Assembly: GCF_002854065.1 (NCBI RefSeq)
Contig: NZ_CP024147.1
Source: Escherichia coli
GTDB taxonomy: Bacteria > Pseudomonadota > Gammaproteobacteria > Enterobacterales > Enterobacteriaceae
Direction: 5' to 3' (one strand)
DNA: 64,000 bases
The position numbers and the translations under genes were made by a program. The notes below the pieces were generated by a model that ran no database searches, had not been told where the DNA came from, and was given only the letters and a program-made list of their open reading frames with translations. Below are positions 23,181 to 39,812 of this stretch, in pieces (the stretch's first letter is position 1; the number at the start of each line of letters is the position of its first letter).

Positions 23181-23214
23181 GCCGGATGTGGCGCGAGCGC
23201 CCTATCCGGCCTAC
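23181..23214. repeat. REP (repetitive extragenic palindromic) element
   Basis: GCCGGATGTGGCGCGAGCGCCCTATCCGGCCTAC matches the REP consensus; intergenic between msrQ and zinT. Confidence 0.6.
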
Positions 23215-23348
23215 GCAGATCACATCAGGTTATGTTTCGTTTGTCATCAACCTCAAATTATCAACATAATTCATTTTATTTCAATAAGATAGATAAGTAC
23301 ACCTGAGAAAACTATGCTCTCATCTCCTAAGAGTTGTTGCATTTTGTC

Positions 23349-23370
23349 ATATGTTACAATATAACATTAC
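23349..23370 (+). promoter_or_regulatory. Putative Zur box in the zinT promoter
   Basis: Near-palindrome ATGTTACAATATAACAT (TGTTA…TAACA arms) immediately upstream of zinT. Confidence 0.5.
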
Positions 23371-23403
23371 ACATCATATACAATGACTCTGGAGGAAACT
23401 GTT

Positions 23404-24054
23404 TTGGCGATTCGTCTTCACAAACTGGCTGTTGCTTTAGGTGTCTTTATTGTTAGCGTTCCTGCCTTTTCGCATGGTCATCACTCACACGGCAAACCCT
23501 TAACAGAGGTCGAACAAAAAGCTGCTAATGGTGTTTTTGATGATGCCAATGTACAAAACCGAACGCTCAGTGACTGGGATGGAGTCTGGCAATCCGTTTA
23601 TCCTTTACTGCAAAGTGGCAAACTTGACCCCGTCTTTCAGAAGAAAGCGGATGCAGATAAAACTAAAACATTTGCTGAAATTAAAGATTATTATCACAAA
23701 GGTTATGCAACAGATATCGAGATGATTGGCATTGAGGACGGCATTGTTGAATTCCATAGAAATAATGAAACAACATCCTGTAAATATGATTACGATGGAT
23801 ACAAAATACTCACCTATAAATCAGACAAGAAAGGCGTTCGTTACTTATTCGAATGTAAAGATCCTGAAAGCAAAGCCCCTAAATATATACAATTTAGCGA
23901 TCATATAATTGCACCACGAAAATCATCTCATTTTCACATTTTTATGGGTAATGATTCACAGCAATCTTTATTAAATGAAATGGAAAACTGGCCAACGTAT
24001 TATCCATATCAGTTGAGTAGCGAAGAAGTGGTCGAGGAAATGATGTCTCATTGA
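23404..24054 (+). CDS. zinT: Periplasmic zinc/cadmium-binding protein ZinT (YodA)
   Basis: Likely TTG start at 23404, preceded by GGAGG 8 nt upstream, giving a 216 aa product starting with signal peptide (M)[22 protein letters not shown] and the His-rich HGHHSHG; the ATG at 23383 is the alternative. Confidence 0.8.
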
Positions 24055-24396
24055 GTATTCTCATGATAACGCCTCGATGCCGCTTTAGTAAGTCATCATA
24101 ACTGCCTCTGGTCCATCCACAAACGCCACTGAACGCAAGCTAGCTACAGACACGCTCATCACTATGACGTGTCTGTATATTAATAAGCTAACCCGCATTG
24201 AGTTAACCAATAACGGATTCCATACACAATACGGCCAACAGAGAAAGATACCTGTGCTCACGCCATTGCTTATATTGGCTGGTTACAATGTGCACTATCA
24301 ATTTTTTAAATAACAAATTCTTAAAACCACATCTGTATAAGGAATTTTTAAGGTTCGTGGGATAGCTTGACTGTGAAAATTACAGGAGCTACAAAA

Positions 24397-24927
24397 ATGA
24401 ACCGATTCTCAAAAACTCAAATTTATTTACATTGGATAACGCTGCTTTTCGTTGCAATAACCTATGCCGCGATGGAACTCCGTGGCTGGTTTCCTAAAGG
24501 TAGTAGTACTTATCTGCTGATGCGAGAAACACATTACAATGCGGGTATATTCGTTTGGGTGTTAATGTTTTCACGCCTGATTATAAAACACCGTTATAGT
24601 GATCCTTCTATTGTGCCACCGCCACCTGCCTGGCAAATGAAAGCGGCTTCGCTAATGCACATCATGCTTTATATAACCTTCCTTGCACTTCCTCTGCTGG
24701 GGATTGCTTTGATGGCTTACAGTGGAAAATCGTGGAGTTTCCTTGGTTTCAATGTGTCTCCCTTTGTTACCCCAAACAGCGAAATTAAAGCACTGATAAA
24801 AAATATTCACGAAACCTGGGCAAATATAGGCTACTTTTTAATCGCAGCTCACGCTGGCGCAGCACTCTTTCATCACTACATTCAGAAAGATAATACTCTG
24901 TTACGAATGATGCCTCGCCGCAAATAA
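24397..24927 (+). CDS. yodB: Cytochrome b561-family protein YodB
   Basis: 176 aa from internal ATG (MNRFSKTQIYLHWITLL…), four transmembrane helices. Confidence 0.85.
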   Translation: MNRFSKTQIYLHWITLLFVAITYAAMELRGWFPKGSSTYLLMRETHYNAGIFVWVLMFSRLIIKHRYSDPSIVPPPPAWQMKAASLMHIMLYITFLALPLLGIALMAYSGKSWSFLGFNVSPFVTPNSEIKALIKNIHETWANIGYFLIAAHAGAALFHHYIQKDNTLLRMMPRRK

Positions 24928-39470: not shown

Positions 39471-39812
39471 TAAGTTCTGAACCTTCTTATCAAAAATAGA
39501 TGTGAAGGATTAAGTAAGACATCTGGCAAATAGCCCGCAATAAACGCGGGCTGTTTGCTTCCTTGGGCGGATACGAGTTTTATTATCGTCTTAATGATTT
39601 CCACATATTAAAAGCAAGTATGCTTTCAAAACACAATTATAAAAAATCCCACCAACAATATAAGTTTTTATAAAATTAAATATAAGATTATGACTTTAGA
39701 ATATTTTTATTTCTAATAGACGAGATTTTTCCTGTTATGATATAATATGCCGAATTAACACATGTTAACGATTTACCAGTAATGTAAATAAATTTTCGAG
39801 GAGATCATTCCA

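Follow-up and report, generated by a model that had tools for sequence, protein, structure and literature searches.

The region immediately upstream of zinT in the window (the whole 64,000-nucleotide stretch of Escherichia coli DNA that was analysed) is best read as the promoter-operator and translation start of E. coli zinT, in which Zur would act at 23352-23371 and translation would initiate at the TTG at 23404, a reading to which we assign a probability of roughly 0.93. The evidence obtained here consists of the identity of the operator with that of K-12, matches to Zur patterns, genome annotation, the energetics of Shine-Dalgarno pairing, conservation and the point at which the 193-residue ZinT chains in the PDB begin. 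Both the Zur operator of zinT, which belongs to textbook zinc homeostasis, and the TTG start are already known, and neither is novel. The consequence is instead one of annotation quality, in that a longest-ORF rule over-extends zinT by seven codons in strains that carry a particular upstream ATG allele.

The zinT locus and its Zur operator

The genes are ordered msrP-msrQ-zinT-yodB, which is also the order in K-12. A 951-nt region containing zinT, 100% identical to that of E. coli strain 100416, is found in 5417 of 5426 complete E. coli genomes, and in each genome with the region the annotation reads zinT, metal-binding protein ZinT (formerly yodA in E. coli). The coding sequence is as follows.

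23404..24054, plus strand: zinT coding sequence, TTG start, 216 codons, TGA stop, placed by RefSeq, NCBIfam and the alignment to PDB 1S7D

The encoded protein scores 428.8 bits against the NCBIfam equivalog NF007639, above the curated cut-off of 300, and aligns over residues 1-216 with the 216-residue YodA/ZinT chain of PDB 1S7D, from which it departs by three substitutions, H6Y, V19A and D141G.

The original prediction had placed a Zur-box-like palindrome, ATGTTACAATATAACAT, at 23351-23367, just upstream of the gene. This position is exact, the arms being ATGTTA and TAACAT, of 6 nt each, separated by a 5-nt spacer. The Zur-box reading is borne out by identity with K-12 over a 20-bp box and by matches to both the Gilston 2014 pattern and the Panina consensus, the palindrome forming the central and left part of the box.

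23352..23371, no strand assigned: Zur box core TGTTACAATATAACATTACA, matching the Gilston 2014 pattern at 20/20 positions, identical in K-12 and conserved

The structure of Zur on DNA has been solved, and from the znuABC, zinT and ykgM operators it yielded a two-dimer pattern, TGWNAYRWTATAWYRTNWCA, with the skeleton RNNNYRNNRYNNYRNNNY (Gilston et al. 2014, PMC4219657). In the window the pattern is matched at all 20 positions at 23352-23371, the sole zero-mismatch match in the 64 kb (matches with two or fewer mismatches are expected by chance 0.21 times over the whole window), and the skeleton lies inside the box at 23353-23370. The older 23-bp pseudo-palindromic consensus GAAATGTTATA-N-TATAACATTTC, as quoted in PMC4219657, is matched at 23348-23370 in 18 of its 22 specified positions. 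The box lies 33-52 nt 5' of the zinT start. As to the register of the operator, TGTTACAATATAACATTACA at 23352-23371, centred between 23361 and 23362, is on the sequences compared a better description than the 17-mer, since the first A of the 17-mer varies within Escherichia (ATG, GTG), whereas the 20-mer is invariant in nine carriers, comprising eight E. coli haplotypes and Escherichia sp. MOD1-EC7003 of the cryptic clade. The identity extends to K-12 MG1655. More widely, all 28 of the closest sequences, made up of the window and 27 species from Escherichia, Salmonella, Atlantibacter, Enterobacter, Serratia, Yokenella and others, have a Zur-box match of 16-21 out of 22 centred 36-45 nt 5' of the zinT start, and scores are similar or higher upstream of zinT in many further genera.

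The biochemistry of the site is taken from published work on K-12, where two Zur dimers bind PzinT cooperatively and protect ~30 bp, with an apparent Kd of 0.053e-18 M^2 that is among the two tightest in the regulon and represents an affinity ~150 times tighter than that for znuC; in vivo, Zur represses zinT 984-fold, with the corresponding derepression in a zur mutant (PMC4219657). Gilston et al. 2014 credit the PzinT operator to Panina et al. 2003. Since the exact PzinT sequence is absent from the text of the former paper, the link to it is made through the published pattern and the K-12 identity. By these comparisons the palindrome represents the core of the Zur operator already described for zinT, and zinc-loaded Zur would be expected to bind and to repress in a zinc-dependent manner at the window site as published for the identical K-12 box.

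Other readings of the site have to be weighed against this one. The palindrome could be an AT-rich promoter element, in other words part of a -10 region, or a chance inverted repeat that no regulator recognises; it does overlap -10-like hexamers, and a bare 6-5-6 palindrome is only modestly unlikely, occurring once in the window against an expectation of 0.12 and at least once in 12 of 100 shuffles of the window. We nevertheless give this reading next to no credence, given the complete match of the region to the structure-derived Zur pattern, the identity of the site with a K-12 box for which binding and repression by Zur have been measured, and the recurrence of the Zur-box match at a similar distance from zinT in every one of the 28 sequences. 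It might also be supposed that the site serves mainly as an operator of Fur or of another metal-stress regulator rather than of Zur. Fur and Zur boxes are both AT-rich repeats of the 7-1-7 or 9-1-9 type and, in early work on yodA, mutations in fur and soxS reportedly affected its induction by cadmium. Here, however, the Zur-specific RNNNY spacing is present at every position and PzinT is one of the sites in the regulon that Zur binds most tightly (PMC4219657), which makes a principal role for another regulator highly improbable.

Elsewhere in the window, the sequence TGTTATGATATAATATGCCG at 39733-39752, in the amn-yeeN spacer, matches the Zur pattern with two mismatches and lies over a -10-like GATATAAT upstream of yeeN; it was considered as a second Zur site and set aside as most probably a chance or promoter resemblance. 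Among the orthologous loci, four contigs of a single Serratia sp. DD3 assembly (L060-L063) are indistinguishable in the start-region scan, both in their N-terminal translation and in their weak best Zur-box match of 13/22, which suggests a multi-copy or mobile context.

Putative promoter elements

The promoter elements set out below were read from the sequence and are putative.

23337..23342, plus strand: putative -35 hexamer TTGCAT, separated by 17 nt from the TATAAC that follows and unchanged among eight E. coli haplotypes
23360..23365, plus strand: putative -10 hexamer TATAAC, lying within the Zur box
23352-23360, plus strand: alternative, likewise putative, extended -10 element TGTTACAAT

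In most related genera a TTGNNN stands just 5' of the Zur box, and several of these genera have TATAAC or TAACAT 17 nt further on, as counted by eye. In the window, a putative -10 read from the sequence as TATAAC or TACAAT overlaps the box. Both readings of the -10 element would place it beneath Zur, which suggests repression by promoter occlusion, and the corresponding transcription start is predicted at about 23372. The accessible literature, including the supplements of Mendoza-Vargas 2009, yielded no mapped zinT transcription start. A scan with the sigma-70 consensus, which demands a T at the last position of the -10 hexamer (position 6), for that reason called no promoter at the Zur box; the scan is in any case uninformative, as it returned 5 sites against 4.9 expected.

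Two further features lie upstream, in the spacer. A 14-nt inverted repeat at 23181-23210, GCCGGATGTGGCGC / GCGCCCTATCCGGC, follows the msrQ stop and precedes the zinT promoter; it resembles a REP (repetitive extragenic palindrome) element. A sigma-70-like TTGTCA-18-CATAAT is present at 23241-23270, some 130 nt upstream of the zinT start. For the yedZ-zinT spacer, Shimada et al. 2014 (PMC3946193) list a 'constitutive promoter' TTGTCA-18-AATAAT, with which this sequence coincides, and it may represent an additional promoter ahead of the Zur box.

The translation start and the upstream ATG

Two in-frame candidate starts seven codons apart, an ATG at 23383 and a TTG at 23404, together with a GGAGG at 23391-23395, had been pointed out in the original prediction, which preferred the TTG and judged the ORF-track start to be seven codons too long. 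All of these coordinates are exact.

23383..23385, plus strand: in-frame ATG ahead of the TTG, polymorphic and not conserved, probably unused, +2.7 kcal/mol
23391..23395, plus strand: Shine-Dalgarno GGAGG, -9.3 kcal/mol with the 3' end of 16S rRNA, 8-nt gap to the TTG
23404..23472, plus strand: Sec signal peptide of 23 codons, cleaved before HGHHSHG, from PDB chains and translation

The preference for the TTG holds on several grounds, namely RefSeq, the PDB chains, the Shine-Dalgarno energy and conservation across genera. The duplex energy with 16S rRNA is -9.3 kcal/mol for the TTG, as against +2.7 kcal/mol (that is, no pairing) for the ATG, and the GGAGG is invariant in the E. coli haplotypes sampled. 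Comparison with curated ZinT sequences, which had been proposed as a check, gives the same answer: the RefSeq coding sequence begins at the equivalent of 23404 in all eight genomes inspected (the identical strain, K-12 and six strains chosen for their different haplotypes), as against the ATG at which the mechanical ORF of 223 residues begins in the window, and the full-length 216-residue PDB chains (1S7D) begin MAIRL, the first residue being that encoded by the TTG. Moreover, the NCBIfam ZinT profile aligns from residue 11 of the 223-residue form, leaving the seven-residue extension outside it, and the primer zinT18_up numbers zinT from the TTG (Gilston et al. 2014, PMC4219657). The literature otherwise contributed little, as a search on the zinT start codon and TTG returned only irrelevant papers and a search for initiation-profiling data on zinT returned none.

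Conservation of the start was surveyed at the zinT orthologue loci L009-L088, in which the start lies at about position 701. Of the 28 closest sequences, 26 have TTG and two have GTG at the homologous position, supported by a Shine-Dalgarno sequence; over the 77 callable loci the start so supported is ATG in 44, TTG in 25 and GTG in 8, the ATG being found in Yersinia, Proteus, Providencia, Buttiauxella and Pantoea. In four species there is an in-frame stop at -21 or -15, exactly at -21 in Salmonella arizonae and in an Enterobacter genome and at -15 in Atlantibacter; a conserved N-terminal extension is therefore impossible. In K-12-type genomes the TTG is the sole possible start after an in-frame TAA inside the Zur box. 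Masking of either start by leader structure can be dismissed, as the leader RNA is no more structured than its shuffles and is, if anything, less so (z = +1.44). Taken on these comparisons, the TTG at 23404 is very probably the real start of zinT.

The signal peptide that follows from the TTG has an n-region with R and K, a 12-residue hydrophobic core and A-F-S at -3 to -1, and the 193-residue chains of PDB 1OEE and 5AQ6 begin at residue 24, with HGHHSHG. Initiation at the ATG would prepend MTLEETV, adding two glutamates and bringing the net charge of the n-region to zero. The mature protein is identical from either start once the signal peptide has been cleaved, such that ordinary N-terminal proteomics is unable to discriminate between them. 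The choice of start accordingly leaves ZinT function unaffected, with a possible effect on the efficiency of export.

The ATG itself varies within the species. An exact 43-mer containing it is shared by 2338 of the 5426 complete E. coli genomes (~43%), including O157:H7 and E. coli B, and, as only these carry the ATG, the ambiguity over the start is confined to them. Among the Escherichia sequences sampled, the codon at 23383 is ATG only in the window, APEC O78 and strain 38; it is TTA in K-12, K-15KW01, E50 and EC21Z-151, and ATA in RMDEC465 and Escherichia sp. MOD1-EC7003. K-12 reads CATTAAC where the window reads CAATGAC, so that two substitutions create the ATG, and the outgroup CAATAAC differs from CAATGAC by a single A-to-G change, which suggests that the ATG is derived. 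The codon is thus probably a derived polymorphism within E. coli.

In carrier strains the ATG might yet be the true start, or one used alongside the TTG, giving a 223-residue precursor whose signal peptide begins MTLEETV. ATG is a stronger start codon than TTG; this one comes first after the in-frame stop and is probably included in the transcript, the predicted transcription start at about 23372 being compatible with its use; the allele is common; and the 223-residue form is found in public annotations on 146 contigs. Against this, the ATG has no Shine-Dalgarno pairing, is missing from five of the E. coli haplotypes sampled, K-12 among them, with ATA or a stop in its place in the outgroups, would add two glutamates to a signal peptide whose n-region then carries no net charge, and is never used by RefSeq in the genomes inspected. 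Its use as a start is consequently very unlikely, and initiation at the TTG remains the preferred reading.

On this reading the longer zinT ORF is an artefact of the longest-ORF rule. Deposits of the exact ZinT protein include the 223-residue form (23383-24051) on 146 contigs and the 216-residue form (23404-24051) on 121; since both stand in the public databases, some pipelines evidently choose the ATG, and annotation is inconsistent between submissions. The same artefact appears in the neighbouring yodB (cytochrome b, 24367-24927), for which the mechanical ORF runs from a TTG at 24367 and the RefSeq gene from an ATG at 24397 (MNRFSK...), ten codons later.

It is mildly interesting that so rare a start as TTG is retained across many Enterobacterales, and that an allele common in E. 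coli introduces a decoy ATG. One conjecture, which we consider very unlikely, is that in the ATG-allele lineages (~43%) a minor fraction of ribosomes starts at the AUG 21 nt upstream and produces a 223-residue pre-ZinT. Were this so, the acidic, charge-neutral n-region would make for poorer export, and the ATG-allele lineages would differ slightly in the output or localisation of ZinT. A related and equally speculative idea is that the weak TTG, kept in at least 25 Enterobacterales species, is under selection because it throttles translation from a promoter whose dynamic range is 1000-fold.

Proposed mechanism and comparison with known systems

The preferred reading, with Zur at 23352-23371 and initiation at the TTG, leads to the following model. 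When zinc is sufficient, two zinc-loaded Zur dimers would occupy the 20-bp box, in keeping with the published binding and footprint size. The box covers the putative -10 element, and RNA polymerase would thereby be excluded and zinT held off, by a factor of ~1000 in K-12 according to the published repression; the -35 and -10 hexamers, the transcription start and the occlusion are our own deductions from the sequence. Under zinc starvation, Zur would leave the DNA and a transcript with an unstructured leader of about 30 nt would be made, on which the ribosome would pair with the GGAGG at 23391-23395 and initiate at the TTG. The resulting 216-residue precursor would lose its 23-residue Sec signal peptide to give a 193-residue periplasmic zinc-binding protein that assists ZnuABC. 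In this scheme the ATG at 23383 would be a polymorphism with no ribosome-binding site of its own, and not a start.

In comparison with known systems, the nearest relative is the K-12 zinT operator, which has the same 20-bp core, the same flanking -35-like block, the same Shine-Dalgarno sequence and the same TTG; over a 191-nt region the two differ by 11 substitutions, none of which falls in the operator itself. The Zur operators of znuABC and ykgM (L31p) share with that of zinT the dimer-of-dimers pattern RNNNYRNNRYNNYRNNNY and the repressor mechanism, and differ from it in the genes that they control. At the level of the protein, the ZinT of the window differs from the known ZinT/YodA protein only by its three allelic substitutions, and it has in common with the ZinT/YodA structures (PDB 1OEE, 1S7D, 1TXL and 5AQ6) the histidine-rich mature N-terminus HGHHSHG.
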